Source of the DNA: Patescibacteria group bacterium
GTDB taxonomy: Bacteria > Patescibacteriota > Patescibacteriia > GWA2-46-9
DNA: 64,000 nucleotides
NCBI GenBank assembly: GCA_041660005.1
Contig: JBAZXG010000003.1
Coordinates: forward strand, 835-64,834
Direction of reading: 5' to 3'
Notes under the pieces: generated by a model
Told to the model about the DNA's origin: nothing
The model's input: only the letters and a program-made list of their open reading frames with translations
Database searches by the model: none
Position numbers and translations under genes: made by a program
In this document: positions 11,370 through 52,391 of the stretch, one piece after another
How the letters are laid out: every line of letters starts with the position of its first letter
How positions within the stretch are numbered: the stretch's first letter is position 1

Positions 11370-12122
11370 ATGTCCGATTATTACAAAGCAAACAGAACGA
11401 GAAATATTTACGATCCTAAGAGTAAGGAGCCGTTTAAATTATCTCGTTCAAAAATCGAAAATTTTTCATCGTGTAAGAAGTGTTTTTACCTTGACCGCCG
11501 ACTGGGTGTGGGACAGCCGTCGGGCTACCCATTAAATTTAAATATCGCGGTCGATACACTTCTCAAAAAAGAGTTCGACATTCACCGCGCAAAACAAAAA
11601 ACGCATCCGCTCATGAAAGCGTATGGGCTGAAAGCCGTACCCTTTGCTCACAAGATGATTAATGAGTGGAGAGAGAATTTTAAGGGTGTGCAGTTTCATC
11701 ATGAGCCGACGAATTTCATTATTTCGGGAGCGGTCGACGATCTCTGGCAAGATGAAAACGGTGAAATTATTGTGGTCGACTATAAGGCCACCAGTAAAAG
11801 TTCTCAGGTTAACCTCGACGCTGCTTGGCAAGACGGGTACAAAAGGCAAATGGAAATATATCAATGGCTACTTCGGAATAATGGTTTGAAAGTGTCGGAC
11901 ACGGGCTATTTTGTGTACTGCAACGGAAAGACAGATGCAGAAGCTTTTGACGCAAAGCTAGAGTTTGACATTGATTTATTGCCCTACACCGGCGACGACT
12001 CTTGGGTTGAAACGCGACTGCATGAAATTAAAAAATGCCTTGACGGAAACATGCCAGACGCAAACCCCAACTGCGATTATTGTAATTATAGAAAAGCAGT
12101 AAGTGAGGTTGATAATAAATAG
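11370..12122 (+). CDS. PD-(D/E)xK superfamily nuclease, Cas4/RecB-like, with N- and C-terminal CxxC pairs (putative Fe-S cluster)
   Basis: 250 aa. Catalytic core ...DDLWQDENGEIIVVDYKAT... (D...E-x-K arrangement). Four cysteines arranged as C-KK-C near the N-terminus and C-DY-C near the C-terminus, as in Cas4/AddB-type nucleases. No CRISPR array or other cas genes in the window. Confidence 0.65.
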   Translation: MSDYYKANRTRNIYDPKSKEPFKLSRSKIENFSSCKKCFYLDRRLGVGQPSGYPLNLNIAVDTLLKKEFDIHRAKQKTHPLMKAYGLKAVPFAHKMINEWRENFKGVQFHHEPTNFIISGAVDDLWQDENGEIIVVDYKATSKSSQVNLDAAWQDGYKRQMEIYQWLLRNNGLKVSDTGYFVYCNGKTDAEAFDAKLEFDIDLLPYTGDDSWVETRLHEIKKCLDGNMPDANPNCDYCNYRKAVSEVDNK

Positions 12123-21005: not shown

Positions 21006-22400
21006 ATGGAGCTAACGTTCTACAATACACTGAGTCGGCGGAAAGAAATTTTCAGTCCAATTCGGCCAAAGACTGTCTATCTTTATACCTGTGGACCAAC
21101 AGTGTACTGGTACGCACACATCGGTAATTTTCGCACGTTCATTTTTTACGATGTACTGCGCCGAGCGTTAGAATTTTTTGGCTACCGTGTCCGTCATGTA
21201 ATGAATATCACGGACGTCGGACATCTTGTTGCTGATGCTGATACCGGTGAAGAAAAAATGGCTGAAGCAGCCAAGCGTGAAAGAAAAACGGCCTGGCAAG
21301 TAGCTGATTTTTATGCTGGCACGTTTATGCGAGATGCGCGCCTGTTTAACCTTAAACCGCCCACGAAGCAACCACGGGCGACTGAGCATATCAAAGAACA
21401 AATCGCCATGATTCAGCTTCTTGAAGAGCAGGGTCATACCTATGTCACCGAAGACGGGGTTTATTTTAATACCGCAACTTTTCCTGCCTATGGCAAATTG
21501 AGTGGTCAGTCGCTCGATGATAAGCAGGGCGGGAAGCGTGTGTCCGTGGCCAATAAAAAACATCCAGCAGATTTTGCTCTGTGGAAATTTTCTCCAGCGT
21601 CAGAAAAGCGAGATATGGAATGGCAAAGTCCATGGGGAGTTGGTTTTCCCGGTTGGCATATTGAATGTTCTGCCATGTCGAGAAAGTACCTCGGGCAACC
21701 GTTTGATATTCATGCGGGTGGCATCGACCACATGCCGGTGCATCACGAAAATGAAATTGCGCAATCCGAAGCAGCCTACGGTGTACCACTAGCAAACTAT
21801 TGGATGCACGGTGAATTTATGGTTCTTGGTAAACCTGAAGAGGAGCGACGCATGGGAAAGTCAGAAGGGAATATCAAGACCGTGAGCGAGATTGTCACTG
21901 AGCTTGGTGTCGAGCCGTTAGCATTTCGTTATCTGTGTCTGACAACACATTATCGTAGTAAGTTGTACTTTAGCGAAGAGGCCTTGAAGGGCGCTGACCA
22001 GGCATTGAAGCGATTGCGGGCGCACGCTCAGGAATTTGGGAAAGCAGGACGGGTGGGTGTCGTTGCCTATGAGGAACGTTTTCGTGACGCTCTAGCGAAC
22101 GATCTTGATACGCCGACAGCTCTTGCGACCGTATGGGAAATGGTGCGTAATCCTGATAAAGATATCGAAGCGGTAAAGCGAAGTTTGTTAACATTCGATA
22201 GCATACTCGGACTCGATTTGGATCGGTTACCTAAAAAAATTTCCGTGCCGAGAAAAGTTCGGAATTTAGTGGCTGATCGCGAAACTGCACGCCAGGAGAA
22301 AGACTGGCAAAAAGCCGATGCCCTGCGATCCGCCGTACAAAGCGCGGGTTACGACGTTGAAGACACTGCCGACGGCCCGAGGGTTCATTTACTGTCTTAG
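21006..22400 (+). CDS. cysS: Cysteine--tRNA ligase
   Basis: 464 aa. HIGN motif (YAHIGNFRTF), KMSKS variant (RMGKSEGN), and the class-I CysRS layout. Confidence 0.92.
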   Translation: MELTFYNTLSRRKEIFSPIRPKTVYLYTCGPTVYWYAHIGNFRTFIFYDVLRRALEFFGYRVRHVMNITDVGHLVADADTGEEKMAEAAKRERKTAWQVADFYAGTFMRDARLFNLKPPTKQPRATEHIKEQIAMIQLLEEQGHTYVTEDGVYFNTATFPAYGKLSGQSLDDKQGGKRVSVANKKHPADFALWKFSPASEKRDMEWQSPWGVGFPGWHIECSAMSRKYLGQPFDIHAGGIDHMPVHHENEIAQSEAAYGVPLANYWMHGEFMVLGKPEEERRMGKSEGNIKTVSEIVTELGVEPLAFRYLCLTTHYRSKLYFSEEALKGADQALKRLRAHAQEFGKAGRVGVVAYEERFRDALANDLDTPTALATVWEMVRNPDKDIEAVKRSLLTFDSILGLDLDRLPKKISVPRKVRNLVADRETARQEKDWQKADALRSAVQSAGYDVEDTADGPRVHLLS

Positions 22401-22439: not shown

Positions 22440-22922
22440 GTGTATATGCATAGCGCAACTGTAGAATCAAAAAAGCAACAAGAGGGGCGCGAAGAAGCGT
22501 CGCAAGCGAAGCACGAGCAGGAGGCAGTGCACGAGAAGCCACAGGCCGATTCGCCTGCGGCTCCTTCATCGATGCAAACGATTACGCCCGTAATTTTTTC
22601 TTCTAGTAGCACGCCAGAAGTTGCCTCGTCTACAAAAAGTCAATCATTGCAGCAGATCGAAGATATTTTATCGGAAGACTTAGGGGAAGTATATGCGTCT
22701 CTTTCGCCGAAGGAGCAGTTCATTATTAAAACAAAAGGAGAACAAACAGCGGAGAAAATTCGCGAGGTATTGCGTCAGGCAACACTACAATTTCGTACGC
22801 TTTTTAAACTCATTTTATCGTGGTTGCGCGTCATACCAGGAGTTGCTCGTCCGTTTGTTGAACAAGAGGCAAAAATTAAAGCGGATAAACTGCTCCGCCT
22901 GAGGAGCAAAAAAGATTTGTGA
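22440..22922 (+). CDS. Hypothetical protein (160 aa), Ser/Thr/Pro-rich N-terminus with a basic helical C-terminus
   Basis: ORF immediately upstream of the VirB4/VirD4-like ATPase and overlapping it. No TM segment and no recognised motif. Confidence 0.45.
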   Translation: MYMHSATVESKKQQEGREEASQAKHEQEAVHEKPQADSPAAPSSMQTITPVIFSSSSTPEVASSTKSQSLQQIEDILSEDLGEVYASLSPKEQFIIKTKGEQTAEKIREVLRQATLQFRTLFKLILSWLRVIPGVARPFVEQEAKIKADKLLRLRSKKDL

Positions 22923-25459
22923 ACATTATACCCGTTACACCAGAGACAAGTTTTATATCTCCACTTCTCTATCCATGGCTCGTTGCGTTAGGTGTTGCTG
23001 GTGTCGTTTTTCTTTTGATACTCCGCGCTATTTACCGCCGTACCTACCAGCATGGTGTTGCATTGAATAAAGTAGTGCTTTTGGTCACTGTTCCAAAGTA
23101 CGAATCCAAGAATAAGGAGGAGTCGAAAGGTATTGAACAACTGCGCGAACAAATTGCTCTGGCTGAGTCGCTTTTTTCCAGCATTGGCGGTTTACGCGCC
23201 GAGCGCAGTTTTGGCGCGTACCTTTGGGGCAGGAGAGACCATTTAGCGCTTGAAATCGTTGCCACAAAAGGAGAGATTCTTTTTTATGTGGTGGTCCCGC
23301 GTCAGATGCAGCGTTTTATTGAGCAGCACATTCATGCTCAGTATCCCGCAGCACACGTCGAGGAATCAGCTGACTATAATATATTTTTACCGCACGGAGT
23401 GTCACGGGGTGCAGTTCTCCACTTTAGTCGGTCATATATTTTTCCTATTCGTACCTATAAAGAGATTGACACTGATCCCTTGCTTGCCGTTACCAATGCG
23501 CTTAGTCGACTCGGTACCAATGGGGCCGCGGTGCAGATTGTGATTCGTTCAGCAAAACGTGGGTGGCATCGTTATGGGCAGCGCACTGCGTCATTAATGC
23601 ATCAAGGTAAGAGTTTTAAAGAGGCCTATTTGGCGGGTCATGGCAGCTGGTATGTTCGTATGGCCGTGCACATCATGCGTGCCTTGTACCCCGCGCCCAA
23701 AAAGGACAACCGAGACGACGATATATACTCACAGAAACAGCACTCGCGTCATCAATTGAGCGCCCTTGAGCAAGAAATGGCAAAGCGCGTTGAGGAGAAA
23801 ACAAGTAAGGCCGGGCTTGATGCAAATATTCGCGTGGTCGTTTCAACGCCGCGAGCAGTGGACAGCGACCGAGCGCTCGACAACATTTTAAATGCCTTTA
23901 ATCAGTTTGGCATGTATCAGTACGGGAATCGTTTCGTACCCAGTCGGCCAAGAAGTCAACAAACGCTTCTGCGTCGATTTATTTACCGTGATTTTGTGAA
24001 ACGAAATGCCGTGCTGTTGAATGCCGAAGAATTGGCGAGCATATTCCATTTTCCGCTTATTGGAACAGAGACGCCGAACATCCGGTGGCTGCGGTCAAAG
24101 AAGGCCGCCGCGCCAACGGTGCTACCTGATGAAGGTGTTGTCCTCGGCGTGAATAAGTATCGCGGCGAGGAGCGCCTCATTCGTTTTGCCACGGCGGATC
24201 GCCGTCGTCATTGCTACATCATTGGAACAACGGGTTCTGGGAAATCAGTGCTCATGAGCGAAATGGTTAAGCAGGACATTGCGGCAGGGCGTGGAGTTTG
24301 CGTTATTGACCCTCACGGATCAACTGTCGAAGATATTCTTGAATGTATTCCTTCATCGCGTGCGAATGATGTTATTTATTTTGACCCCGCTGACGTCGAG
24401 CGCCCCATGGGGCTTAACATGCTTGACGCAACGACGCCGGCAGAAATGGATTTTGCTACGCAAGAAATGATTGCCATTTTTTACAAGCTGGTAACTGATC
24501 CGTCGATGATTGGTCCGATGTTTGAACACAATATGCGGAACGCCATGCTGACTTTAATGAGCGATCGAGAGCAGCCGGGTACACTCGTGGAAATACCAAG
24601 AATATTTACCGACACGGAATTTCAGCGGTTTAAAGTAAAAAAAGTTAACGATCCGATAGTACGGGCCTTTTGGGAGCAGGAAATGGCTAAAACTTCAGAT
24701 TTTCACAAGTCTGAAATGCTTGGGTATTTGATTTCCAAAGTAGGACGTTTCATTGAAAACAGCATGATGCGCAATATTATTGGACAATCGAAGTCCGCCT
24801 TTAATTTGCGTCAGGTCATGGACGAAGGGAAAATTCTCTTGGTCAATTTATCAAAGGGCAAAATTGGCGATATCAACGCAAACTTGCTTGGGCTCATACT
24901 CGTGTCAAAGATTCAGATGGCAGCGCTTTCTCGTGCCGATTCTCGCGAGGACAGCTATAAGGATTTTTATTTGTATATTGATGAGTTCCAGAATTTTATT
25001 ACTGATTCAATTGCTACGATTCTTTCTGAGGCGCGTAAGTATAAGTTGAACTTGATCATGGCACATCAGTACATTGGTCAGCTGGTGCAAGGTCAAGATA
25101 CCAAGATTCGCGATGCGGTTTTAGGAAACATCGGCTCAATCATCGCTTTTCGTGTTGGCGTGGAAGACACGGAGATGCTGGCTAAAGAATTTGAACCAGT
25201 CTTTACGGAGTACGATCTCATCAACATTGATCGGTTTCACGCTTATGTGCGGCTGCTCATTAACAACAGTGTCACGAGGCCCTTCGATATAGACACGTTC
25301 CCGCCGACCGTTGGCGACCCGGCGCGTGCAGCTATTTTAAAGCAGGCATCACGAATGCGTTACGGGCGCGATCGTAGAGAAGTTGAAGCTGAAATTATAG
25401 AACGCGGTAGACTTTCTTCACTGGGGGCGCCGACCGTTGATCGAGCCGTGTTACTCTAG
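22919..25459 (+). CDS. Type IV secretion-family ATPase (VirB4/TrbE- or VirD4/TraD-like; FtsK/HerA superfamily) with N-terminal TM anchor
   Basis: 846 aa. A TM helix near the N-terminus. Walker A GTTGSGKS at about residue 435, followed by VIDPHGS. Walker B LYIDEFQNF. EARKYKLNLIMAHQ matches the E-[AG]-R-K-x-G...Q motif of T4SS ATPases. Confidence 0.65.
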   Translation: MNIIPVTPETSFISPLLYPWLVALGVAGVVFLLILRAIYRRTYQHGVALNKVVLLVTVPKYESKNKEESKGIEQLREQIALAESLFSSIGGLRAERSFGAYLWGRRDHLALEIVATKGEILFYVVVPRQMQRFIEQHIHAQYPAAHVEESADYNIFLPHGVSRGAVLHFSRSYIFPIRTYKEIDTDPLLAVTNALSRLGTNGAAVQIVIRSAKRGWHRYGQRTASLMHQGKSFKEAYLAGHGSWYVRMAVHIMRALYPAPKKDNRDDDIYSQKQHSRHQLSALEQEMAKRVEEKTSKAGLDANIRVVVSTPRAVDSDRALDNILNAFNQFGMYQYGNRFVPSRPRSQQTLLRRFIYRDFVKRNAVLLNAEELASIFHFPLIGTETPNIRWLRSKKAAAPTVLPDEGVVLGVNKYRGEERLIRFATADRRRHCYIIGTTGSGKSVLMSEMVKQDIAAGRGVCVIDPHGSTVEDILECIPSSRANDVIYFDPADVERPMGLNMLDATTPAEMDFATQEMIAIFYKLVTDPSMIGPMFEHNMRNAMLTLMSDREQPGTLVEIPRIFTDTEFQRFKVKKVNDPIVRAFWEQEMAKTSDFHKSEMLGYLISKVGRFIENSMMRNIIGQSKSAFNLRQVMDEGKILLVNLSKGKIGDINANLLGLILVSKIQMAALSRADSREDSYKDFYLYIDEFQNFITDSIATILSEARKYKLNLIMAHQYIGQLVQGQDTKIRDAVLGNIGSIIAFRVGVEDTEMLAKEFEPVFTEYDLINIDRFHAYVRLLINNSVTRPFDIDTFPPTVGDPARAAILKQASRMRYGRDRREVEAEIIERGRLSSLGAPTVDRAVLL

Positions 25460-25533
25460 TGGGCATACTTTTCTGGACGTAAAATGAACCCTTCGTTATA
25501 CTGGTTATAGTTACGTTACATCGGTGGTCGCGT

Positions 25534-26175
25534 GTGCAGAGAAACAAAAAACGAAAATATATGGATATAACAAACATACAAGATTTTTCTTCAGAAGAGG
25601 GAACACCAGAAGCAAGTACCGAGATCGGTGTTTCTCACAATGAACAGATCACTGCCGCGAAAGCGGTGTTAGCAAACCAGCTTTTAGAAGAGGCCGTAAC
25701 CTTACTTGAGCGGGTGCGACATTTACTCGGGGTCAGTAGTTCGAGTACTATCGATTTTGTTCAAGCGACTGCCGTAGACGATGACGCAGATGATCCCGAA
25801 GGAAGAGTCATTGAAGGAGTTTTTGACGGTCAAAAAATGGTTGGTCCTGACGGTCGTCATTATTCGGTTCCGGCGAACTATGCGTCGAAGTCAAAATTAG
25901 TAGAGGGCGATCTTTTAAAGTTAATCATTACACCGCGCGGCGCTTTTGTCTTTAAGCAGATTGGCCCGACCAGCAGGCGGCGGCTACTTGGTACATTGCA
26001 TCGTAATATTGACGATAGTGATTGGTGTGTAAAGGCAGAAGGGTGGACCTACCGCGTATTGACGGCGAGCGTTACCTACTTTAAAGGTCGCGACGGCGAC
26101 GAGGTCTCTGTTCTTGTTCCGGAAAGTGGTGAAAGTAAGTGGGCAGCGGTTGAGAACATTATCAAAAAAACGTAA
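25534..26175 (+). CDS. Hypothetical protein (213 aa)
   Basis: Clean ORF downstream of the T4SS-family ATPase. No TM segment. Acidic central segment. Confidence 0.5.
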   Translation: MQRNKKRKYMDITNIQDFSSEEGTPEASTEIGVSHNEQITAAKAVLANQLLEEAVTLLERVRHLLGVSSSSTIDFVQATAVDDDADDPEGRVIEGVFDGQKMVGPDGRHYSVPANYASKSKLVEGDLLKLIITPRGAFVFKQIGPTSRRRLLGTLHRNIDDSDWCVKAEGWTYRVLTASVTYFKGRDGDEVSVLVPESGESKWAAVENIIKKT

Positions 26176-26259
26176 TTGTTTGATGATAGGGTACATCGGG
26201 TATTTTGACCCGGTTTTGTCTTGGCTCAAATGATGCGCTAAACTGCCAACGACCATACT

Positions 26260-27762
26260 ATGCCAAGCTCTCTCTACCAACGCTATCGGCCCAAGAAGTG
26301 GGCTGATTTAGCGGATCAAAATCACGTTAAAGTTACCTTGCAGCACGAAATCGAGCGTGAGCAAATTGCGCACGCCTACCTTTTTGTCGGTCCTCGAGGT
26401 GTCGGTAAGACCACGACAGCCCGGCTTTTTGCGAAAGCAATCAATTGCGACGCACGTGCCAAGAAAACCGCCGAACCCTGCAATAGCTGTGCTTCCTGTA
26501 AACGCATCGATGCGCAGCAGTCTTTTGATCTCATTGAAATAGACGCAGCGTCTCATACTGGTGTTGACCACGTGCGTGAGTACATTCTTTCCTCGGCTGA
26601 AGTGCAAGCAGGGCACGGACGTTACCGAGTGTTCATTATCGATGAGGCGCACATGCTCTCAACTGCTGCCTTCAATGCCATGTTAAAAATTTTAGAGGAG
26701 CCGCCAGCACACGTTATTTTCATACTAGCGACTACCGAGGCGCATAAAGTTCCCGCAACGATCATTTCACGCTGTCAGCGTTTTGATTTCAAACGTATTG
26801 CTCCTGATATCATACGCGACCGTCTGCGTAGCTTAGCCGAACAGGAAGGGGTCCAAGTTACTGATGATGTGTTGGCAGCCATTGCTGCGCATGCGGAAGG
26901 ATCACTCCGAGACGCTGAAGGCAGTCTTGGTCAAGTTTTTTCTATTGGTGCAAAAAAAATTACCATGGACGAAGCCTCTCTTGTTATTCCGCGCTCTACC
27001 ATTACTGACGCTGCAGCGCTTGTTGACCTTTGTTTGCGTCAGTTAACTGCTGAAGCTATTGCTTACGTAAATGATCGGGTGGATAACGGTATTAATATTA
27101 ACGTGTTCATGGCCGATGTTATTGTGTGGCTGCGCACACTTTTGTTAGCCAAGGTAGGGAAGCAACTTGATCTTTTTTCTCAGCAGACACTTGGTGAGTT
27201 GCACAGCGCTGCGCTTGAACAAGCGGCGCGAACGACAGTAAAGCGTTTGCAAATGATGATTGACATTTTTATTAAACAGCGATCCTTGCTTGGTCAAACG
27301 CCAATTGAGCAGCTGCCTTGCGAACTTGCTGTTGTTGAAGCATGCGCTATTACAGAGGGTGAAGGTGCAGAAAAAATTTTTAACATCAAAGATAGTAACA
27401 ATAAACAAAAACCAGATAGTTCAGCAACGCAAAAATCTGATAAGCCAGATGAGACTGATAGCGAGACTGAAGTCAAAAGTTCGTTAAGTTCGCTGGAGAA
27501 GTTTACCCTTGAGGAAGTGAAGGGCCGTTGGCATGAAGTTTTGGAAAACATAAAAAGCTTAAACCGTTCTTTGTGTTATGTTTTGGCTGGTTCGTCACCT
27601 CGGGCAGTTAGCGGCAACCGAATTGAACTCGGCGTTAAATATCCGTTTCACCAAGACCGCGTTCACGATGCCAAAAATCGTTCAGTACTGGCAGAGGCGA
27701 CAGAGAAGGTGTTCGGCCAAGCGTTAAGCGTGGTAGCAGTTTTAAATAAGGACGGTGAATAG
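26260..27762 (+). CDS. dnaX: DNA polymerase III subunit gamma/tau
   Basis: 500 aa. AAA+ clamp-loader motifs (GPRGVGKTT, DEAHML, SRC). Zn-finger cysteines CNSCASC. Confidence 0.9.
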   Translation: MPSSLYQRYRPKKWADLADQNHVKVTLQHEIEREQIAHAYLFVGPRGVGKTTTARLFAKAINCDARAKKTAEPCNSCASCKRIDAQQSFDLIEIDAASHTGVDHVREYILSSAEVQAGHGRYRVFIIDEAHMLSTAAFNAMLKILEEPPAHVIFILATTEAHKVPATIISRCQRFDFKRIAPDIIRDRLRSLAEQEGVQVTDDVLAAIAAHAEGSLRDAEGSLGQVFSIGAKKITMDEASLVIPRSTITDAAALVDLCLRQLTAEAIAYVNDRVDNGININVFMADVIVWLRTLLLAKVGKQLDLFSQQTLGELHSAALEQAARTTVKRLQMMIDIFIKQRSLLGQTPIEQLPCELAVVEACAITEGEGAEKIFNIKDSNNKQKPDSSATQKSDKPDETDSETEVKSSLSSLEKFTLEEVKGRWHEVLENIKSLNRSLCYVLAGSSPRAVSGNRIELGVKYPFHQDRVHDAKNRSVLAEATEKVFGQALSVVAVLNKDGE

Positions 27763-44073: not shown

Positions 44074-47000
44074 ATGGCCGTGCGCCAGCGTCGAGCTGTT
44101 CCTAATTCTAGAAGTAAAAAGATACATCGAGATAAATTTTCGGTGTCGTTTCGTATTCAGGCAGCTGTCCTTGGAGTAGTGATATTACTGGGCGTACTGG
44201 TAAACAACATTAAATTCGGAGAGAGCGCACAGTCAACTTTTCAGCAGACAAGCTGGACGGGTCAATCGAAGGGAACCACTGAAGTCACTACTTCCCCATG
44301 GGTTGATTTTTCAACTACTGATGCTAGTGACGCTAATATCGACAGAACGTCTGGTCTTCGGTTGAAATATACCTCCTCGTCGCAGTCGGTAACAACAAAA
44401 GCCGCCTTTGATGCTGCAAGTCCTTTGTACACCAAAACGAAATCAGTAAGCGGTTCAGGAGACGATGGCTCAGTGCAGCTTGACGGTGATGCCGCATGGG
44501 TGCCGCTAAGTACGCAGTCAAGTTTGGGCGCTCTTACTAATGGCAGTGTTCTGGCGGCCGATGGTTCGCGCTACCTTTACGCAGTCGTAGGAGGCGCAAA
44601 AACTTTATACCGTTTTGACACGACAGCAGCGTCACCCAGTTGGACGTCACTTGGTAACTATCCTTTTACCGATGTTTCAAACCAAGGAGCAGCCATGGTG
44701 TATGCAAATAATGCTTTGTATTTAAACAATGGCACTGGTAAAGGCATCTACCGCTATACCATTAACGCTAACGGTTCTGGATCGTGGAGTACGCTCGGGG
44801 CTGTGAAAGATGCTTATTATAATTTTGGCGCCGGTGGGGGACTAGTATGGAATGGCGGTAATTATATCTACCACGTAAGTGGTTATTATGCTGGCCCTTC
44901 TTTTGAAGTTTATTCAATTAGTGCGAACACCTGGACAAAACTTAGTAATTCTCCTGTGGGTGTGGCTGATGGAAGTGCTTTTGCTTATGATACGGTTTCG
45001 CAGGCGCTCTACCTCGGTATAGGCGGCACCGCTTCTATTTATCGGTTTAAACCTGTAAATCCGAATAGTCCCGCCTTGAGTGATAGTTGGCAGCAGACGG
45101 TTTACGCAAGCCTACCAGTCACGCTAGGTCTCGGGTCTTTATTTATATCCGGACCGTCTGGGTCAATTTATGCACTGACCGGCGGATCAGCAGGAAACTT
45201 TCTTAAAAGTGCTTCCAATGGGTCGTCGTGGGCAACAATTGTTCCTGCGCTTGGCGCTATGGCAAAGGGTGCTGGCGGAATCTATATAGCGAACAGTGGT
45301 CGATTTTATGCCTTTAGGGGCGGAGCTGCGGAATTAGATACCTGGAAGGCAATGCCTATAGCGCCGGCATTCGGTACCTACGAATCTGGTGCGATAGACT
45401 TTAGTGCAGCGCGACGGTTCACGAGCGTTCAGTTGGATAGCGATATTCCGTCCGGTACTTCAATGACGCTCGAGGTGCAAGCGCGACAGACTGCTACGAG
45501 TGCCTGGAGTGCTTGGTCACCCATTACAATCACGAGTAACAGTGGTTCACTCAGCGCCAGCGATTATCAGGGAGTTCAGTACCTGAAGTTTCGCATAACG
45601 TTAAGAACAAATAGCTCTACTGTGACACCGAAACTGCGCGGTATTACATTTAGCTACGCTAACTATGCTACGAGTACCTACCTTGATTCGTCACCCTATA
45701 AAATGGGTACTACTGCTCAAGGTCCCGCCATTGTACAGCTCAAGTGGAGAGAAATTATCCCCGCAGCGTCAAACACTACGGTGAGATTACAGTTAAGGAC
45801 CAGGAGTACAAAAGATTTTACCGATGGGGTGAGTGGTGATAAATGGTATGGTTCTGGAAACACCGAAGGAGAGGTATTTACGGCGAGTAATAGTGGATGC
45901 ACGAGAACACCGGTGAGTGGAAATGAATATGAAGTAAGCTGTAATGTGAATGCTACGAGTCCGCTTAATAATTCCAGTACGTCGTACGTTCAGTATAGAG
46001 TTAAATTAGATTCACCTGATGCAAACGCAACTCCAACCGTAACCAGCGTATCCGTTGTTTATGATATCAATGCTTCGCCTGTTGTCAGTAATGTTACTGT
46101 CGTCGGACAGGATGCATCTGGTCTTGCGACATTTACCTATAAAGTCATTGACAACGATGCAGCGGATTCGAATTTTGCTGTTGGGCTCTATTATGATCTT
46201 GGTATTCGTTTGCCCTCAAGTATTGGCAGCGGCGTTGGTTCAATCACTGTCTCTGTTCCTGGCACTGCACAGCTTTCCGCATTGCTACCCCCCGATGGAG
46301 TACTGCTCATTGAGAACGAGCAGATTCTGTATCGTACGATTTCCGGAAATCAGTTCGTCATAGATACAGCGTCTGATCGTGGTGCTTTCCAAACAATTGC
46401 AACAGCGCACAACCCCGGGGGAACACCATTGACGGTCTGGATTCGAGCTACTGATTCTGAAGTTGGTAATAAGTTCAATGTCCAATCGTATGTAAATGGT
46501 GACGTAGGTAGTAGTGTCAGCTGCACGAGCAAATTCACTCCTTGTTCAAAAACGATTACTTGGCGCCCGGCTTTGGATCTTACCGCCAAGGTTTATTTGT
46601 CTGGTCAAAATATTAAAGTTGCTGCTAATGACAAGCATGCAGTTAATAGCGTTGGCGGCGCAGCTTTGGTGTCGCCAGCAACGTTTACGCTGGACACTAT
46701 AGCTCCACAGCTCTCAGCTACGCCAATGAGAATTGTCGGTAGTGCGGTTGCTGGGACAACAACGGGGTTAAAATCATCTACAAAAAGTGTTGCCTTAGCG
46801 ATCGAGTCTCCAAACGTGACTGGTGACAATCCATTGTCTAGCACAAAGTATTCAGTGTGTGACGAAGTGACTGGAAGCGGGACGTGCGGCACATTTTCAG
46901 TGGATGCATCTGGAGGAGTACCATCCGGATGGTTAGCGTTGAGTTCGTTTAGCAACTTAACTTCATGTCCTGCATTATCTCCAACGCTTCCACCTTTAGG

Positions 47001-50000
47001 TAGTGGTGTTAGCTGTTCTTCATTTGTGCTTGCTGGTGCAGGAGAGCGCACTGTTCAATTCGCTGCAGTGGACAACGTTGGTAATAGTAAGCGTGGAAGT
47101 GCGGACATCATTGTTGATCAAACGCCGCCGGTAACACCAGCCAACTTTTCTGCACAGGATGCTTCGAACCAGACAGTTGGAGCTCTCGTTTACCTGCGAT
47201 GGGATGCGCTTACTCCAGCGAGCGTTACCGACGCATCAGGAAACGGAGATTTTGCTCAGTACCTTATTTATAGAAACAATAGGGCAGACGCTAGTTCAGG
47301 GTGCAGTTCCTCAGCAACAACTTTTTGTTTGCTGACAAAGGTAACGAATATCGTGACCGGAACTTTTGCCGATTCAGACGTGGCTGCTGCAACGAGCTAT
47401 CAGTATAAAATTATTGCTGAAGACAATATTGGGAACGATTCGTCAACGCTTAGTAGTGCAACACCGACTTCAGCCGTAACACCGACGCCTGCCGGACAGG
47501 CCGTCGCGCCGACCCCACAAATAACCAATGTCGTTCTTGGTACGCCTGATACAAGTTCAGTCAAGGTTAGTTGGGATACAACAAATTCTGTTAGCGACGC
47601 ATCCGTTATTTACGCTGGTACAGCAAGCGCACCTGTTAGTTTTTCCGGTTATCCCTCTCAGGGTGACCCTACGGTTACCGATACGCATACGGTTACTCTT
47701 GTTGGACTGTCGGCCGATACAACCTATTATTTACAGCTTCGTTCTGTTGCACCCGGAAACGATACACCGGGGACCTATCCAGGCGCCGGACAGCCGGACT
47801 TAATGTTTAAAACAAAACCATTACCGCTCGTAGAGCGCCCAACCATTACTCCGGGATCTCCCTTGGTGTCACCAAATGAGACAAGTGCGGTGTTCAAGTG
47901 GACGACCGGAAGTAGCGAGTCAGCTTCTGATTCTTTTGTTGAATACGGCTTGAATTCGGCCCTTGGTTCTTACTATGGGACTCGGGCAACAGGTGTGGTT
48001 CACGACGTAATTGTTCCCGCGTTAACATCGGCAACAAAATATTTCTTCCGTGTGCGCTCAGCTATTCCGGGTGGCGGCGAAAAAGCGTACCCGACAACTG
48101 CACCGGATCCAGAAATGACGCCGCTTGATTTTACGACACTGCAACCGACGAACGATACAACCGCTCCAGAGCCGACCAATATACAGGTTCCTTCTCAGTC
48201 AGTTAGCGATACAACCGCAATTGTCACTTGGCACACCTTGGAACCGGCGGTGCCTTTTGTTGAATTTTGGCGAGTAGACGATCCAACAACGCACCGGGTA
48301 CTACCGTCGACTCCCGGGGACGAAACATCCAGTGCTAGTATTCTTTTGTCCAGTCTTGATCCAGATACAGAGTATCAGTTCATTGCCATTTCAAGAGATG
48401 CTGCGGGTAATTCTGGCAGGTCCGCGGTTCAGCCGTCATTCAGAACCAGCAAAGATCCACGCTATACTTCTGATCCAGTCATTACGACGATTCACAACGA
48501 TCCTGCAGGTGTCTCTACCGTTACTATCTACTTCAACACTGACCAGGCGACCACTGCCGTTGTTCGTTACTCTTCAGATACTGATCCAACACCATACTCT
48601 CGGTCGCAAAGTTTTCCGTCGTTTGTTGAGGGGGAGCATGCAGTCACACTTCTTGGATTAACTTCAGGGACACCGTACGTTTATAAGGTTGAGACAACGA
48701 ACCCAAGCGGTGGCAATGCTTCTAGTAGCAACTGTAGCGGTGTAAGTGACAGCTGTAGTTTTGCGACTAACATAGCACAAGGTGAGCTGCCGGACATCAT
48801 TGTTCCGTCTATCAGAGTAACGAAAGATGCGGACAAGGCAAATCTTGTCACTATCTCGTGGGAAACAAGTCAGGCGGGAAATTCGCTTGTTGAGTTTGGT
48901 CAAGACGCCGTTGACGGAGTGCCGCAATACGGCAGAACGTTTGGGTTTGTGCGCGACAGCGCCACTATTCACTCTGTTACCTTGCCGAATGACCTACTAG
49001 AGGGTCAAACTTATTACTTCCGTCTACGGACCGAGGATAGAGCTGGCCAGTTAGCAGTATTTCCAGTGACTGCCGATCTCACTGATACGTCATGTAATAA
49101 CCCAAATCCTGCCGCTAGTACTTGTAAAAACCCGACGTTTAGCACAGTCGACACTGGACTTGTCCAGATCGGTGAAAAAATTAGTCCGCCAGTCATTACC
49201 GGAGTTGCCCCGCTACTTGTCACAAATACGAAAGTCGTTATTGGATGGACAACGGATAAACCAGCGACTTCTGAAGTCTTTCTTGGCACTTCAACACTTT
49301 TTGCATCAGACCCAACAGCGTCAGACGACACACTGACAACAGTGCACGCAGTAACCATTGACGGCTTGCAGTCAAGTACGCCATATTATTTCGCTATCGC
49401 TTCAGTTGATAGAAATAAACAACGGCAATCGGATGACAATAAGGGAGAGGCGTACACTTTTACAACAAATGCGGGGACTAAAATTGGCGATAATCAGGGT
49501 CAACAAGGGGTACAGGGTGTTGTGAAAACAGATCTTTTGCCACCGGTGATCTCGGGTATTAGCGTTACTGGTATTACAGATTTTGGAGCCACTATAACCT
49601 GGGTAACCAATGAACATGCGACATCGCTCGTGCAATATGGCGAAGATACTACCTACGGTTCAATTTTTGGGGATTCAGCGAATCTGACTTCTGAGCATTC
49701 TGTAACGTTGGTCGGCCTTACTGGCGGCACACAATATCATTTCTCGATTATCGCCTATGACGGAGACGGGAACCGCGCATTTAGTTCTGACGATACTTTT
49801 ACAACAACCGGGGAGCCGGGCAAAAAAGAGGAGACCGATACAGAGAAAACCGACAAAAATAAAACTGACAAAGAGCAGAATACAGAAAAAACCAATGATA
49901 CTGAAAATGCAGACACATTGACGGCTATTGAAAAAACGATTCGTGAGCTGAGCCAGGATAAGCAATTGTCATTGCAAAAAATTATCGAACTACTAAAAGA

Positions 50001-51030
50001 CTTTGACGAAACAGATGCCTCGAAGATTCTTGACACCGTCGGTCTACAAATGGTTGCACCACCGCAATTTGTTGGTGGTGCTCCTCGGGTAACGGTAACC
50101 ACTGATTCCGCGACCATTCACTGGACGACAGATAAACCGTCGGACAGTCGTATCGCTTTTGCTAGCGATCTCGATTATGCGCCAACGGCAAGTGATCCCT
50201 ATGGAATAGAAATAGGGGACACTGAAACATATATAAGGGACCATGAAATCGTCATTTCAAATTTAACGCCCAATACGGTCTATCATTATCAGGTGCGTTC
50301 TCGGGAGCGTGTCGGTAGATCAGCGCGTTCCATCGATAGGACTTTTAAAACATTAGCGCTGCAACCGGAAATCAAAAAATTAGCAGTAGGTAAAGTGACA
50401 GAGAATAGTATTACCTTAACCTGGCGAACAAATGTTCCTGTCAAATCAGTAATTAGTTATACAAATAAAACCACCAAAGAAGAACTTTCTCAGGGGAATC
50501 CTCAGTTTTTAACCTTACACAGTTTCGAATTGAAGAATTTGAACGGGGACACTCTCTATACTATGCGGGTTGTTGTTGAAGATGAATCTGGTTTAACGTC
50601 TACGTCGGAGGTAATAAGTGCAAGAACCACCAAGGATGAAAAGCCTCCCGTCATTGATCAAGTACGAACCGAGGTGAGCTTGGCAGGCGAAGAGGGAAGT
50701 TTTGCGCAAGCTATTGTTTCATGGAAAACCGACGAACCATCTGCATCGCAGATTGCCTTCGAAGAAGGGATTACAAAATCGGATACACTCGCCAATAGTA
50801 CGGAGTTACTGTCGGAGCTTTCTTTAAGCCATGTCATGGTACTGGGTAAGTTGCGCCCGGCGACAGTCTATCGTTTCCGGGTTCTTGGTAGCGACTCGTC
50901 TGGTAATAAAGCTGCGTCGCGTGACTACACTTTACTAACACCTCAAAGGAAGCAGTCGGTTTTGGGAATCATCATTAATAATTTTGAGCAGACCTTTGGG
51001 TTCTTGCGTTTCCTTGGGTGGTCGCCGTAA
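44074..51030 (+). CDS. Giant cell-surface protein (2318 aa): signal anchor, Kelch-like beta-propeller, about 10 PAP_N/FN3-like repeats, K/E/T-rich acidic linker, C-terminal hydrophobic segment
   Basis: Single uninterrupted 6.96-kb ORF. The N-terminal TM is VLGVVILLGVLV. Six Kelch-like blades each contain Y-x-[YA]-x-[GR]-G (YLYAVVGG, YIYHVSGY, LYLGIGG, IYALTGG, FYAFRGG). The repeat signature V-x-[IV]-x-W-x-T-x3-[AS]-x-S-x-V-x-[YF]-G recurs about 10 times. Low-complexity linker ...KKEETDTEKTDKNKTDKEQNTEKTND.... The 3' end overlaps the following ABC ATPase gene by 13 nt. Confidence 0.85.
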   Translation: MAVRQRRAVPNSRSKKIHRDKFSVSFRIQAAVLGVVILLGVLVNNIKFGESAQSTFQQTSWTGQSKGTTEVTTSPWVDFSTTDASDANIDRTSGLRLKYTSSSQSVTTKAAFDAASPLYTKTKSVSGSGDDGSVQLDGDAAWVPLSTQSSLGALTNGSVLAADGSRYLYAVVGGAKTLYRFDTTAASPSWTSLGNYPFTDVSNQGAAMVYANNALYLNNGTGKGIYRYTINANGSGSWSTLGAVKDAYYNFGAGGGLVWNGGNYIYHVSGYYAGPSFEVYSISANTWTKLSNSPVGVADGSAFAYDTVSQALYLGIGGTASIYRFKPVNPNSPALSDSWQQTVYASLPVTLGLGSLFISGPSGSIYALTGGSAGNFLKSASNGSSWATIVPALGAMAKGAGGIYIANSGRFYAFRGGAAELDTWKAMPIAPAFGTYESGAIDFSAARRFTSVQLDSDIPSGTSMTLEVQARQTATSAWSAWSPITITSNSGSLSASDYQGVQYLKFRITLRTNSSTVTPKLRGITFSYANYATSTYLDSSPYKMGTTAQGPAIVQLKWREIIPAASNTTVRLQLRTRSTKDFTDGVSGDKWYGSGNTEGEVFTASNSGCTRTPVSGNEYEVSCNVNATSPLNNSSTSYVQYRVKLDSPDANATPTVTSVSVVYDINASPVVSNVTVVGQDASGLATFTYKVIDNDAADSNFAVGLYYDLGIRLPSSIGSGVGSITVSVPGTAQLSALLPPDGVLLIENEQILYRTISGNQFVIDTASDRGAFQTIATAHNPGGTPLTVWIRATDSEVGNKFNVQSYVNGDVGSSVSCTSKFTPCSKTITWRPALDLTAKVYLSGQNIKVAANDKHAVNSVGGAALVSPATFTLDTIAPQLSATPMRIVGSAVAGTTTGLKSSTKSVALAIESPNVTGDNPLSSTKYSVCDEVTGSGTCGTFSVDASGGVPSGWLALSSFSNLTSCPALSPTLPPLGSGVSCSSFVLAGAGERTVQFAAVDNVGNSKRGSADIIVDQTPPVTPANFSAQDASNQTVGALVYLRWDALTPASVTDASGNGDFAQYLIYRNNRADASSGCSSSATTFCLLTKVTNIVTGTFADSDVAAATSYQYKIIAEDNIGNDSSTLSSATPTSAVTPTPAGQAVAPTPQITNVVLGTPDTSSVKVSWDTTNSVSDASVIYAGTASAPVSFSGYPSQGDPTVTDTHTVTLVGLSADTTYYLQLRSVAPGNDTPGTYPGAGQPDLMFKTKPLPLVERPTITPGSPLVSPNETSAVFKWTTGSSESASDSFVEYGLNSALGSYYGTRATGVVHDVIVPALTSATKYFFRVRSAIPGGGEKAYPTTAPDPEMTPLDFTTLQPTNDTTAPEPTNIQVPSQSVSDTTAIVTWHTLEPAVPFVEFWRVDDPTTHRVLPSTPGDETSSASILLSSLDPDTEYQFIAISRDAAGNSGRSAVQPSFRTSKDPRYTSDPVITTIHNDPAGVSTVTIYFNTDQATTAVVRYSSDTDPTPYSRSQSFPSFVEGEHAVTLLGLTSGTPYVYKVETTNPSGGNASSSNCSGVSDSCSFATNIAQGELPDIIVPSIRVTKDADKANLVTISWETSQAGNSLVEFGQDAVDGVPQYGRTFGFVRDSATIHSVTLPNDLLEGQTYYFRLRTEDRAGQLAVFPVTADLTDTSCNNPNPAASTCKNPTFSTVDTGLVQIGEKISPPVITGVAPLLVTNTKVVIGWTTDKPATSEVFLGTSTLFASDPTASDDTLTTVHAVTIDGLQSSTPYYFAIASVDRNKQRQSDDNKGEAYTFTTNAGTKIGDNQGQQGVQGVVKTDLLPPVISGISVTGITDFGATITWVTNEHATSLVQYGEDTTYGSIFGDSANLTSEHSVTLVGLTGGTQYHFSIIAYDGDGNRAFSSDDTFTTTGEPGKKEETDTEKTDKNKTDKEQNTEKTNDTENADTLTAIEKTIRELSQDKQLSLQKIIELLKDFDETDASKILDTVGLQMVAPPQFVGGAPRVTVTTDSATIHWTTDKPSDSRIAFASDLDYAPTASDPYGIEIGDTETYIRDHEIVISNLTPNTVYHYQVRSRERVGRSARSIDRTFKTLALQPEIKKLAVGKVTENSITLTWRTNVPVKSVISYTNKTTKEELSQGNPQFLTLHSFELKNLNGDTLYTMRVVVEDESGLTSTSEVISARTTKDEKPPVIDQVRTEVSLAGEEGSFAQAIVSWKTDEPSASQIAFEEGITKSDTLANSTELLSELSLSHVMVLGKLRPATVYRFRVLGSDSSGNKAASRDYTLLTPQRKQSVLGIIINNFEQTFGFLRFLGWSP

Positions 51031-52391
51031 TTATGCGAGAGTCGATTATTAAAATCACTGATGTTTGCGTTACTTATAATCAGGGTAAGCTCGGGGAAAC
51101 GAACGCACTGAAAAGTGTTAGTTTAGAAATATTTCCCGAGGAGTATGTGATTTTTTTTGGGCCGTCTGGTTGCGGAAAGTCGACACTGCTTTACACGATG
51201 GCAGGTCTTGAAACGCCGAACAGCGGAGTAGTTAATGTTGCGGGCAAAGATTTAGCGAAGTTGCCAGCGCGTGAGCTTGTTCAATACCACCGGACAAAAT
51301 TGGGCATGATTTTTCAGGCGTTCTATTTAATTCCGTCACTTAGCGTGCTTGACAATGTAGTACTGCCGCAGATGTTTATTCGAAAAGCACCGCATGAACG
51401 TAAAGAACATGCTATGCAGGTGCTGAAAAGGTTTGGCATTGATCAGTTTGCCGACCATTTACCAACCGAACTTTCTGGCGGACAGCAACAACGCGTGGCC
51501 ATCTGCAGGGCGGTAATGAATAACCCCGATATTGTTTTTGCTGATGAGCCAGTAGGAAATCTTGATTCTGTGGCTTCTGAGAAAGTTATGGAACTTCTTT
51601 ATGAACTAAACTCAAAAGATAAAAAAACTGTCGTTCTGGTTACCCACGACTCTCGTTATTTGCGTTTTGCTCATAGAATAATCTACCTGAGGGATGGCGA
51701 GATAGTGCGCGAGGTAACCAATACAGAACGTTTACAGCTGCGTGAGGAGAAAATTAAGCCTTTTGTGCCACACGCGCTTGAAGAGTTTGCTCGGTACTAT
51801 CCAAACCTTGGTGAGTCTGAGCTTAAGGCAAAATTTTTAAGTCATTATTTGCTCGACCTAGCGGAAGAACGTCTGCAGGAGCGATTAGAAACACTTGTTC
51901 ACAAGCGCACCGTTGGTGAAGTTACCCGAGAACAATTTATTTCCCGAGCCAATACGCCATTTATTGAAGGCGGCGTCGGCCTCTATGAGCAAACTGCCGA
52001 GCATATTGCTGACAATCTTGATGCGGTTTTGGAGGAGTCGCGCTTTATTAGGGAGCATTTTAAGAACTTTCCTGAAAGTTATGAACTTTTGCAGCAGGGA
52101 ATTGCTCGCCTCAAGGCTCGTCTTTTGGAGCATTACCACGGCCATTTGACTCAAGAACAAAGCGATCGACTTGATCAAAGTATTAAAGCTCGGCTTGAAG
52201 GGTCTTTAGACCATCGACAGCTGAAAGATGTTCTTGATCGTCCTTTTAAGGATGGCGGTGTCGGGCTTCATTATCAAACTGCTCAAGATTTTGGTAGACG
52301 CCTTGAGGTTTACTTGATTGATTACAGTACTGAGGCGCCTAAAGTGACGGATGTCGTTCAGGAGACGGCATTGCAAGGTAAAATTCTATGA
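51018..52391 (+). CDS. ABC transporter ATP-binding protein (MacB/LolD/FtsE-like) fused to a roughly 220-aa C-terminal extension with internal repeats
   Basis: Residues 1-230 carry Walker A GPSGCGKST, the Q-loop, signature LSGGQQQRVAICRA, Walker B IVFADEP and H-loop VTHD. The C-terminal half is non-ABC and contains the repeated motif PF[IK](E/D)GGVGL(Y/H)(E/Y)QTA(E/Q) at two positions. Confidence 0.8.
   Translation: MVAVIMRESIIKITDVCVTYNQGKLGETNALKSVSLEIFPEEYVIFFGPSGCGKSTLLYTMAGLETPNSGVVNVAGKDLAKLPARELVQYHRTKLGMIFQAFYLIPSLSVLDNVVLPQMFIRKAPHERKEHAMQVLKRFGIDQFADHLPTELSGGQQQRVAICRAVMNNPDIVFADEPVGNLDSVASEKVMELLYELNSKDKKTVVLVTHDSRYLRFAHRIIYLRDGEIVREVTNTERLQLREEKIKPFVPHALEEFARYYPNLGESELKAKFLSHYLLDLAEERLQERLETLVHKRTVGEVTREQFISRANTPFIEGGVGLYEQTAEHIADNLDAVLEESRFIREHFKNFPESYELLQQGIARLKARLLEHYHGHLTQEQSDRLDQSIKARLEGSLDHRQLKDVLDRPFKDGGVGLHYQTAQDFGRRLEVYLIDYSTEAPKVTDVVQETALQGKIL

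Follow-up and report, generated by a model that had tools for sequence, protein, structure and literature searches.

A type IV coupling protein homologue carrying DUF8128 within a conserved housekeeping gene block of Patescibacteria

INTRODUCTION

Patescibacteria account for a large part of the diversity of bacteria and live by exploiting other cells. In one member of this phylum (assembly GCA_041660005.1, contig JBAZXG010000003.1, positions 835 to 64,834 of the forward strand; these 64,000 nucleotides, analysed as a whole, are referred to below as the window), the gene for an 846-residue ATPase lies between cysS and dnaX, at 22919..25459 on the forward strand with a GTG start. The protein is a homologue of the type IV coupling proteins (T4CPs) of the VirD4/TrwB class, and its gene is vertically inherited within a housekeeping block and under strong purifying selection. 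A domain located between its membrane anchor and its ATPase core, DUF8128, is shared with T4CPs from conjugation clusters of monoderm bacteria and archaea. We put the chance at about one in two (probability roughly 0.5) that this ATPase serves as the substrate receptor and motor for the T4SS (type IV secretion system), derived from the mating-pair-formation class FATA (MPF-FATA), that the phylum encodes elsewhere.

Both the protein family and its orphan situation have been known for the phylum since 2025, and the ATPase described here is a well-conserved further example, an incremental addition. A survey of 3,035 Patescibacteria genomes recovered 5,713 VirD4-type T4CP homologues from 2,918 genomes, only 148 of these homologues being near virB4, together with VirB4 in 2,417 genomes, where it forms a clade nested in MPF-FATA, and almost no relaxases (Quinonero-Coronel et al., 2025; PMC12102498). 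In Candidatus Southlakia epibionticum, the T4SS cluster was found to be essential and to contain no recognisable coupling protein (Wang et al., 2023; PMC10633639). With such orphan T4CPs, including SEML1_0293 and SEML1_0142 of Southlakia, the present ATPase has in common its phylum and family, a location far from virB4, the missing relaxase, and a complement of about two copies per genome. The 2025 survey did not describe DUF8128, the small upstream partner (p160) or the synteny with cysS and dnaX. These are the new details, namely, the link of DUF8128 to conjugation T4CPs, p160 and the cysS/dnaX block, to which we add a downstream protein family (p213) and a caveat concerning the essentiality of two paralogues. 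The T4SS of Patescibacteria is essential in the one species tested, and these details offer targets for genetics in Southlakia or other tractable Saccharibacteria.

A COUPLING PROTEIN HOMOLOGUE OF THE VirD4/TrwB CLASS

The ATPase is anchored by a single hydrophobic segment at about residues 17–38 (Kyte–Doolittle (KD) score 2.46), which is followed by the arginine cluster RAIYRRTY, in keeping with the positive-inside rule, and is covered by a helix at residues 14–49 in the AF2 model. From its N-terminus, the protein is laid out as a short external stretch, the transmembrane (TM) helix, a cytoplasmic DUF8128 domain of approximately 350 residues (about 50–400), and a RecA-like ATPase domain (about 405–800). 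The latter contains Walker A (GTTGSGKS, residues 436–443; 24224..24247), VIDPHG from residue 462, Walker B (IDEFQNF, residues 687–693; 24977..24997), EARKY (704–708) and AHQY (715–718), so that the N-terminal helix and the entire set of motifs listed by an earlier, sequence-only reading of this DNA, up to its EARKY…Q signature, are present. The AF2 model (pLDDT 84.9) comprises the TM helix, an alpha/beta N-terminal domain (51–375), the RecA-like domain, and an eight-helix insert at residues 507–635, which separates the strand of Walker A from that of Walker B. Placed inside a TrwB/VirD4-type ATPase, this insert matches the all-alpha domain of coupling proteins.

Profile comparisons converge on the same class. 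The protein scores 41.3 bits against PF02534 (T4SS-DNA_transf; gathering threshold (GA) 20.1) and 41.2 bits against PF10412 (TrwB_AAD_bind; GA 20.5), in both cases over residues 414–751, and 24.6 bits against PF12696 (GA 22). All NCBIfam equivalog and subfamily models, the best being TraD and VirD4-like, remain far below their cut-offs, and the ATPase therefore belongs to no named T4CP subfamily. When a profile built from 46 sequences was searched against the Protein Data Bank (PDB), the nearest entries were TrwB (E-value 8e-7) and DotL (3e-4); HerA followed at 0.017–0.14, and VirB4 was not found. Foldseek searches with the model likewise returned TrwB chains, over 410–460 columns with TM-target scores of 0.58–0.68, and then Cagbeta and HerA.

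The prototype of the family is TrwB of R388 (PDB 1E9R/1GKI), the best PDB relative by sequence, with which the ATPase shares, as with VirD4, TraD and TraG, a RecA-like P-loop core, the Walker A and B motifs with a basic motif after them, the all-alpha insert, and an N-terminal membrane anchor. T4CPs of the canonical type possess two TM helices. The present protein differs from TrwB in having only one, in the DUF8128 domain of some 350 residues interposed between anchor and ATPase, and in the setting of its gene, which lies in a housekeeping block and is accompanied neither by a relaxase nor by mating-pair-formation genes. In sequence, the two proteins are only about 15% identical.

The sequence-only reading had left the family assignment between VirB4 and VirD4. 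Its VirD4 half is borne out by the two Pfam matches of 41 bits, and its VirB4 half is rejected: there is no match to PF03135 (CagE_TrbE_VirB) at E ≤ 1, and the TIGR00929 (VirB4_CagE) score is 28 bits against a cut-off of 643. Resemblances to VirB4 (TrwK of R388, PDB 7O43/8RTD) are limited to a similar length, a two-part layout and a Walker A motif near residue 435 of about 800. TrwK/VirB4 does give the best Foldseek E-value (2e-14) in a whole-chain alignment, but with a TM-score of 0.30 and an rmsd of 18 Å this is suggestive only and leaves likeness of the N-terminal domains unproven. A DUF8128 profile gave no hhalign signal against three VirB4-like proteins (probability ≤2%).

Two further identities, FtsK and HerA, are rejected on profile scores and coverage. 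FtsK/SpoIIIE is represented by 14.2 bits to PF01580 (GA 24) over a mere 21 residues, and the ATPase lacks a gamma domain and has only a single TM helix. For HerA, the scores are 29.7 bits to DUF87, confined to residues 429–467 around the P-loop, and 12 bits to NF040819, whose cut-off is 970. The comparison with FtsK and HerA profiles that the sequence-only reading had proposed consequently yields no full-length match to either.

DUF8128 TIES THE ATPASE TO CONJUGATION SYSTEMS

The domain that sets this protein apart from TrwB is PF26449 (DUF8128), a match precomputed on the identical deposited protein and on all 120 listed homologues; the literature that we searched contains no mention of it. 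Relatives outside Patescibacteria are informative in this respect. A tblastn search of plasmids with the ATPase half retrieved 749 records, the best of which was plasmid p1 of Streptomyces sp. BHT-5-2. There, an 814-aa open reading frame (ORF; locus L092, 6765–9209) aligns to query residues 41–816 with 29% identity (E 1e-70), matches the DUF8128 profile (hhalign 99%, E 1e-17), and is flanked on one side by a VirB4-like ATPase of the CD1110 family (288 bits) and on the other by an NlpC/P60 wall hydrolase. On the Bacillus licheniformis plasmid NZ_CP032539, a 912-aa homologue that is mis-annotated as an ABC transporter, and whose residues 110–354 match the DUF8128 profile (hhalign 95%, E 2e-8), precedes a replication-relaxation (relaxase-like) protein, a protein of the TcpE family and a VirB4-like ATPase of 867 aa. 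A plasmid of Natrinema sp. DC36 with pilin and conjugal-transfer genes carries a stand-alone DUF8128 ORF of 375 aa (locus L093, 7485–8612; hhalign 99.6%, E 1e-23) that overlaps the start of a 1031-aa T4CP gene (L093, 8602–11697). The same stand-alone form, of about 375 aa, recurs on haloarchaeal megaplasmids (matches H26–H35), as opposed to the fused form of Patescibacteria, Streptomyces and Bacillus.

Judged from these alignments, a DUF8128 domain joined to a T4CP ATPase, whether fused or split, is an architecture found among the coupling proteins of conjugation systems in monoderm bacteria and archaea. The order of parts is the same in the window protein and in the T4CPs of these MPF-FATA-type clusters, DUF8128 preceding an ATPase with an all-alpha insert, and the ATPase domain is 26–28% identical to the Bacillus and Natrinema proteins. 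What differs is the neighbourhood: the plasmid genes adjoin VirB4-like ATPases, wall hydrolases, and relaxase-like, TcpE-like or pilin genes, and the window gene adjoins none. Since homologues that include the N-terminal domain occur at full length in genuine conjugation clusters, the Patescibacteria ATPase can be described as a domesticated conjugation T4CP. This architecture also fits the published nesting of Patescibacteria VirB4 within MPF-FATA.

Some members of the family are considerably longer. Some DUF8128-T4CPs (six members of 1,267–2,006 aa; see also locus L085) bear C-terminal extensions of 400–1,200 aa in which no Pfam domain was found. Another member, of about 1,000 aa and belonging to a 90% cluster of 336, is encoded at locus L097 (5991–9985). 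Two small ORFs without annotation (121 and 210 aa) come before its gene and gyrB–gyrA after it, a DNA-metabolism neighbourhood.

A VERTICALLY INHERITED GENE IN A HOUSEKEEPING BLOCK

The ATPase is 100% identical to a protein deposited from a metagenome-assembled genome of a Patescibacteria group bacterium and 79% identical to a Ca. Uhrbacteria protein, and homologues at 55–79% identity extend over many named candidate phyla. Thousands of homologues match over the full length, far more than chance would produce; at E ≤ 1e-30 there are 6,101 related clusters (50% identity), and relatives occur in at least 596 GTDB species. Even relatives that at first resembled N-terminally different paralogues proved to carry a divergent DUF8128. 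In the 46-sequence alignment, the catalytic residues G436, G439, G441 and K442 of Walker A are invariant, as are D688, E689, F690, Q691, N692, E704, A705, R706, K707, Y708 and Q717. Conservation is unevenly distributed along the chain: mean identity to the 45 aligned homologues is highest in the all-alpha domain (78%), followed by the ATPase domain (70%) and the DUF8128 N-terminal domain (47%).

Gene order is preserved as well. Three ORFs on the same strand lie between cysS (21006..22400, forward strand) and dnaX (26260..27762, forward strand), namely, p160 (22440..22922), the ATPase, and p213 (25534..26175), the first overlapping the ATPase start by 4 nt; the neighbours named by the sequence-only reading are thereby confirmed, and both small proteins lack a TM segment. 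We scored a sample of 80 loci related to the ATPase from GTDB species, the denominators below being the loci scored for each gene. A p160 homologue stands directly upstream of the ATPase in 72 of 77 loci, many with the 4-nt overlap. In 50 of 75 loci, the ATPase gene has a same-strand p213 homologue downstream, at a distance of at most 300 nt in 35. Downstream dnaX was found in 59/67 loci, 14 of which have it directly after the ATPase (within 150 nt and with no p213), and cysS lies no more than 4.3 kb upstream in 45/63. In other lineages, gyrB/gyrA or recJ adjoins the T4CP homologue, and even at 34–41% identity the T4CP homologues occupy housekeeping neighbourhoods again, with no T4SS gene found nearby and p160 no longer detectable. 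In about ten related genomes, p213 is separated from the T4CP gene by an additional ORF of 174–204 aa, which begins with a TM helix and contains a motif of class-I SAM-methyltransferases (VYDLGxGDGR); the window has no such ORF.

An orphan T4CP gene devoid of mating-pair-formation genes, with homologues in plasmids and clusters resembling integrated conjugative elements (ICEs), could in principle be the decaying remnant of such an element. This interpretation is effectively refuted. The reading frame is intact, the catalytic residues are invariant, and identity stays at 55–79% across candidate phyla; the cysS/dnaX order is repeated in dozens of species; GC content at the locus (0.47–0.48) equals that of its flanks; and no integrase, relaxase, flanking tRNA or repeat was found around it. 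A search of the full 64-kb window for VirB4, VirB6, relaxase and integrase found none of them. Synteny, composition and conservation hence contradict an origin as a decaying or integrated element, and with the outcome of this search they uphold two propositions of the sequence-only reading: that no other T4SS components accompany the gene, and that it is chromosomally fixed and is no conjugative element.

p160, A PUTATIVE PARTNER OF THE ATPASE

The p160 ORF spans 22440..22922 on the forward strand; the NCBI annotation starts it at the ATG at 22446, giving 158 aa. Because its stop overlaps the GTG start of the ATPase, the two genes are probably translationally coupled. Its N-terminal half (residues 1–70) is acidic and of low complexity (pI 5.5), its C-terminal half (71–160) is basic and helical (pI 9.6) with a near-invariant motif, WL..IPGvN.fF.EQEAKIK.D, and its maximum KD score is 1.2. 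No match was found in Pfam, NCBIfam or PDB sequences, no relative is detectable beyond the clade with at least 50% ATPase identity, none occurs in the Streptomyces, Bacillus and Natrinema conjugation clusters, and plasmids gave no informative match.

The T4CP start is also abutted by a small ORF, acidic and rich in disorder, in many other lineages, with no detectable homology to p160. We consider p160, which is clade-specific, likely to be a partner or regulator dedicated to the ATPase. Small-protein partners of T4CPs include CagZ for Cagbeta, TraM for TraD and IcmS/W-LvgA for DotL. By analogy with CagZ and TraM, p160 would most likely be a regulator or adaptor of the T4CP.

Two Parcubacteria-type genomes deviate from this pattern (loci L095, 639–3356, and L096, 588–3293): a DUF4012 protein of about 900 aa takes the place of p160 directly upstream of the T4CP gene, with a gap of 1 nt (L095) or 45 nt (L096). 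At two p213 homologues chosen only for their long contigs, the order reads DUF4012 – T4CP – p213 – dnaX.

p213, A PREDICTED TANDEM OB-FOLD PROTEIN LINKED TO dnaX

The p213 ORF (25534..26175, forward strand) is started by NCBI at the ATG at 25561, which yields 204 aa (25561..26175). An acidic, disordered N-terminus, one long helix (coiled coil) and two predicted tandem OB-fold domains make up the protein; the AF2 model has a pLDDT of 82.8, rising to about 95 in the two beta-barrel domains. The motif PANYASKSKLVEGD is invariant within the OB part, whose pI of 9.3 makes it basic, and the maximum KD score of the protein is 1.1. At least 7,935 homologues exist, widespread in Patescibacteria and without a Pfam match, and sequence searches of Pfam, NCBIfam and PDB gave no informative match. 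No relative was found in the three conjugation clusters, nor by tblastn of the plasmid collection. p213 represents a separate, uncharacterised family that is very widespread and may be essential.

Structural comparison offers some clues to function. Foldseek returns weak matches to the S1/CSD part of RNase R (E 1.4e-3), to IF1 (66–75 columns, TM-target 0.6–0.7, E 4e-3 to 7e-2), and to the coiled-coil plus double-OB region of Mpa. With the N-terminal region of Mpa/ARC/PAN, p213 shares one long helix followed by two OB domains in its model, aligning over about 134 columns to the Mpa inter-domain. Compared with Mpa, S1 and IF1, it shows E-values of only 1e-3 to 1e-1 and no sequence similarity, and it is a separate small protein that is not fused to an ATPase. 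p213 is a probable nucleic-acid-binding protein.

The sequence-only reading anticipated that both flanking ORFs would be conserved alongside the ATPase. This expectation is borne out, yet the two genes are not equivalent: p213 accompanies the ATPase in two thirds of the first sample and tracks dnaX more closely in a second one. The second sample comprised 80 loci from metagenomes, for which a divergent homologue of p213 served as seed; dnaX follows p213 in 24 of the 45 loci with enough flank, and a T4CP gene precedes p213 in only 7 of 39. The association of p213 with dnaX is at least as strong as that with the ATPase. Together with the 14 loci in which the ATPase leads directly into dnaX, these counts weaken the case for a dedicated T4CP partner, which p213 perhaps is not.

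A probable counterpart in Southlakia is SEML1_0404, a protein of 171 aa with two predicted OB domains, encoded two genes upstream of dnaX and scored NE/ES/ES by Tn-seq (PMC10633639). The best AFDB matches of SEML1_0404 are mis-named "50S ribosomal protein L7/L12".

A PROPOSED MOTOR FOR A SECRETION SYSTEM ENCODED ELSEWHERE

How might a solitary coupling protein operate? Published surveys place the T4SS of Patescibacteria elsewhere in the chromosome and its cluster without a coupling protein (PMC12102498; PMC10633639). In the reading to which we assign even odds, the ATPase would assemble into a membrane-anchored hexamer with its motor domains facing the cytoplasm, the all-alpha domain would bind a conserved substrate or adaptor, and ATP hydrolysis would hand the substrate to the FATA-derived T4SS (VirB4, VirB6, VirB3 and VirB2-like pilins). 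The sequence-only reading had instead invoked a non-canonical apparatus for DNA uptake or secretion, which overlooks the FATA-type T4SS present elsewhere in about 80% of Patescibacteria genomes and the orphan T4CPs already published for the phylum (PMC12102498).

Regarding the cargo, classical conjugation is unlikely because there is no relaxase. Three points slightly favour nucleic acid over protein: the substrate-binding domain is conserved, a basic protein with predicted tandem OB folds is encoded nearby, and T4SS loci of class ABY1 are reported to include comF, recG and radA often (PMC12102498).

Several observations weigh against a motor role in the phylum's T4SS. T4CP homologues occur in more genomes than VirB4 does (96% versus 80%; PMC12102498). 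In Southlakia, SEML1_0293 is dispensable, and the T4SS is essential (PMC10633639). No T4SS gene was found within approximately 5 kb in any of roughly 170 related loci, which makes the physical link to the T4SS purely inferential. Finally, neither a relaxase nor the signal of a known T4SS substrate was identified.

The Southlakia genetics deserve closer reading. The authors of the 2025 survey raised exaptation of the T4CP as a possibility, since the Southlakia t4cp gene was not essential (PMC12102498). Table S1 of the Southlakia study lists two T4CP-like genes: SEML1_0293 (921 aa), which is non-essential, and SEML1_0142 (1,019 aa), which is essential at all time points; SEML1_0141 (139 aa), located 13 nt upstream of SEML1_0142, is scored essential too (PMC10633639). 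The published remark that the t4cp gene is not essential covers only one of the two. SEML1_0293 follows a sigma/HARE-HTH gene, an arrangement also seen at locus L088.

The same facts lend themselves to a different account, in which the T4CP hexamer, together with p160 and perhaps p213, has been exapted into a translocase that is independent of the T4SS and carries DNA or RNA through the membrane or along it, alone or with another channel, for uptake or processing of host nucleic acid or for a task connected with replication or segregation. The gene is always away from virB4 and amid housekeeping genes, with dnaX downstream or even abutting in one group of loci and gyrB/gyrA or recJ alongside in others; the wider distribution of T4CP homologues relative to VirB4 and the exaptation raised in the literature point in the same direction, and a basic tandem-OB protein nearby suits the handling of nucleic acid. 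A 2026 preprint, moreover, reports that a Patescibacterium takes up host RNA by a mechanism it leaves unresolved (10.64898/2026.06.21.733656). Set against this are the single TM helix, owing to which the ATPase could not form a membrane channel by itself; the dnaX adjacency, which may be mere inherited gene order in compact genomes with nearly all genes on one strand; and the frequent location of p213 elsewhere. A role as a substitute for FtsK is excluded, given that Southlakia retains a canonical FtsK that is essential (PMC10633639 tables). We know of no precedent for a VirD4-class T4CP that works without a translocon. We regard a translocase of this sort as the main rival of the T4SS motor, though on the unlikely side.

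Motor function for the T4SS could also be realised with a different cargo, an alternative that overlaps the reading given even odds above and departs from it only in this respect. Here, the T4CP would bring effectors or toxins destined for the host bacterium to the T4SS, p160 would be their chaperone or adaptor, on the model of IcmS/W-LvgA with DotL and CagZ with Cagbeta, and p213 would be unrelated. The missing relaxase is compatible with protein cargo, which the Southlakia authors suggested as a possible export for their T4SS (PMC10633639). The architecture of p160, a disordered acidic half joined to a conserved helical half, speaks for the same reading. T4CPs that translocate effectors typically have small partners, and the Cagbeta–CagZ complex (8dol) is among the Foldseek matches of the ATPase. 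Nonetheless, the closest full-length relatives reside in DNA-conjugation clusters, no effector candidates were identified, and p160 shows no detectable similarity to known adaptors, all of which renders dedicated protein export doubtful.

A still bolder proposition unites the T4CP with the small ORF next to its start, p160 in this genome, and perhaps with p213, which looks essential, in a phylum-wide module for nucleic-acid trafficking. Host-derived or self DNA/RNA would pass through the pilus-bearing T4SS of Patescibacteria or move independently of it. We think this improbable, a speculation with far-reaching consequences: if true, the module would be the missing motor for the nucleic-acid scavenging that these nucleotide-auxotrophic epibionts rely upon, and its Southlakia counterpart would be the essential pair SEML1_0141/0142.

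OTHER FEATURES OF THE WINDOW

Between p213 and dnaX lies a terminator-like hairpin followed by a T-run (26195..26224, forward strand), which may mark the end of a p160–ATPase–p213 transcript; the evidence is weak, the total of terminator-like sites in the region not being above shuffled expectation. The other genes of the window are of housekeeping type, among them mraW, a penicillin-binding protein (PBP) gene, a Mur ligase gene, hrcA, dnaK, dnaJ, metK, genes for FKBP, DsbA, an RNase J-like protein and MurJ, lepA, recJ, and glycosyltransferase genes. Nearly all are on a single strand, and GC content is flat at 0.44–0.49.

The sequence-only reading also suggested that the ATPase might work with type IV pilus genes at 38.7–42.4 kb, a connection that nothing supports. 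The segment 38671–42429, 13 kb from the ATPase gene, holds only four pilin- or pseudopilin-like ORFs. GFTLIEALISL, FGMIELLAAMAL and VSLFEVVIYVAF are among their N-termini, and the last of the four is an ORF of 619 aa. No gene for a pilus ATPase, platform protein or prepilin peptidase was found in the window. Among the related loci, pilMNO lies near the T4CP gene in one Kuenenbacteria locus, an arrangement that is not general.

Elsewhere in the window, an isolated ORF for a PD-(D/E)XK/Cas4-like nuclease (11370–12122) is situated amid transporter and chaperone genes, with no CRISPR or cas genes seen near it. At 44074–51030, an ORF of 2,318 aa, rich in Thr, Ser and Ala and with an N-terminal hydrophobic segment, probably encodes a giant surface protein, and directly after it, at 51018–53608, follow a MacB-type ABC ATPase and an FtsX-like permease.

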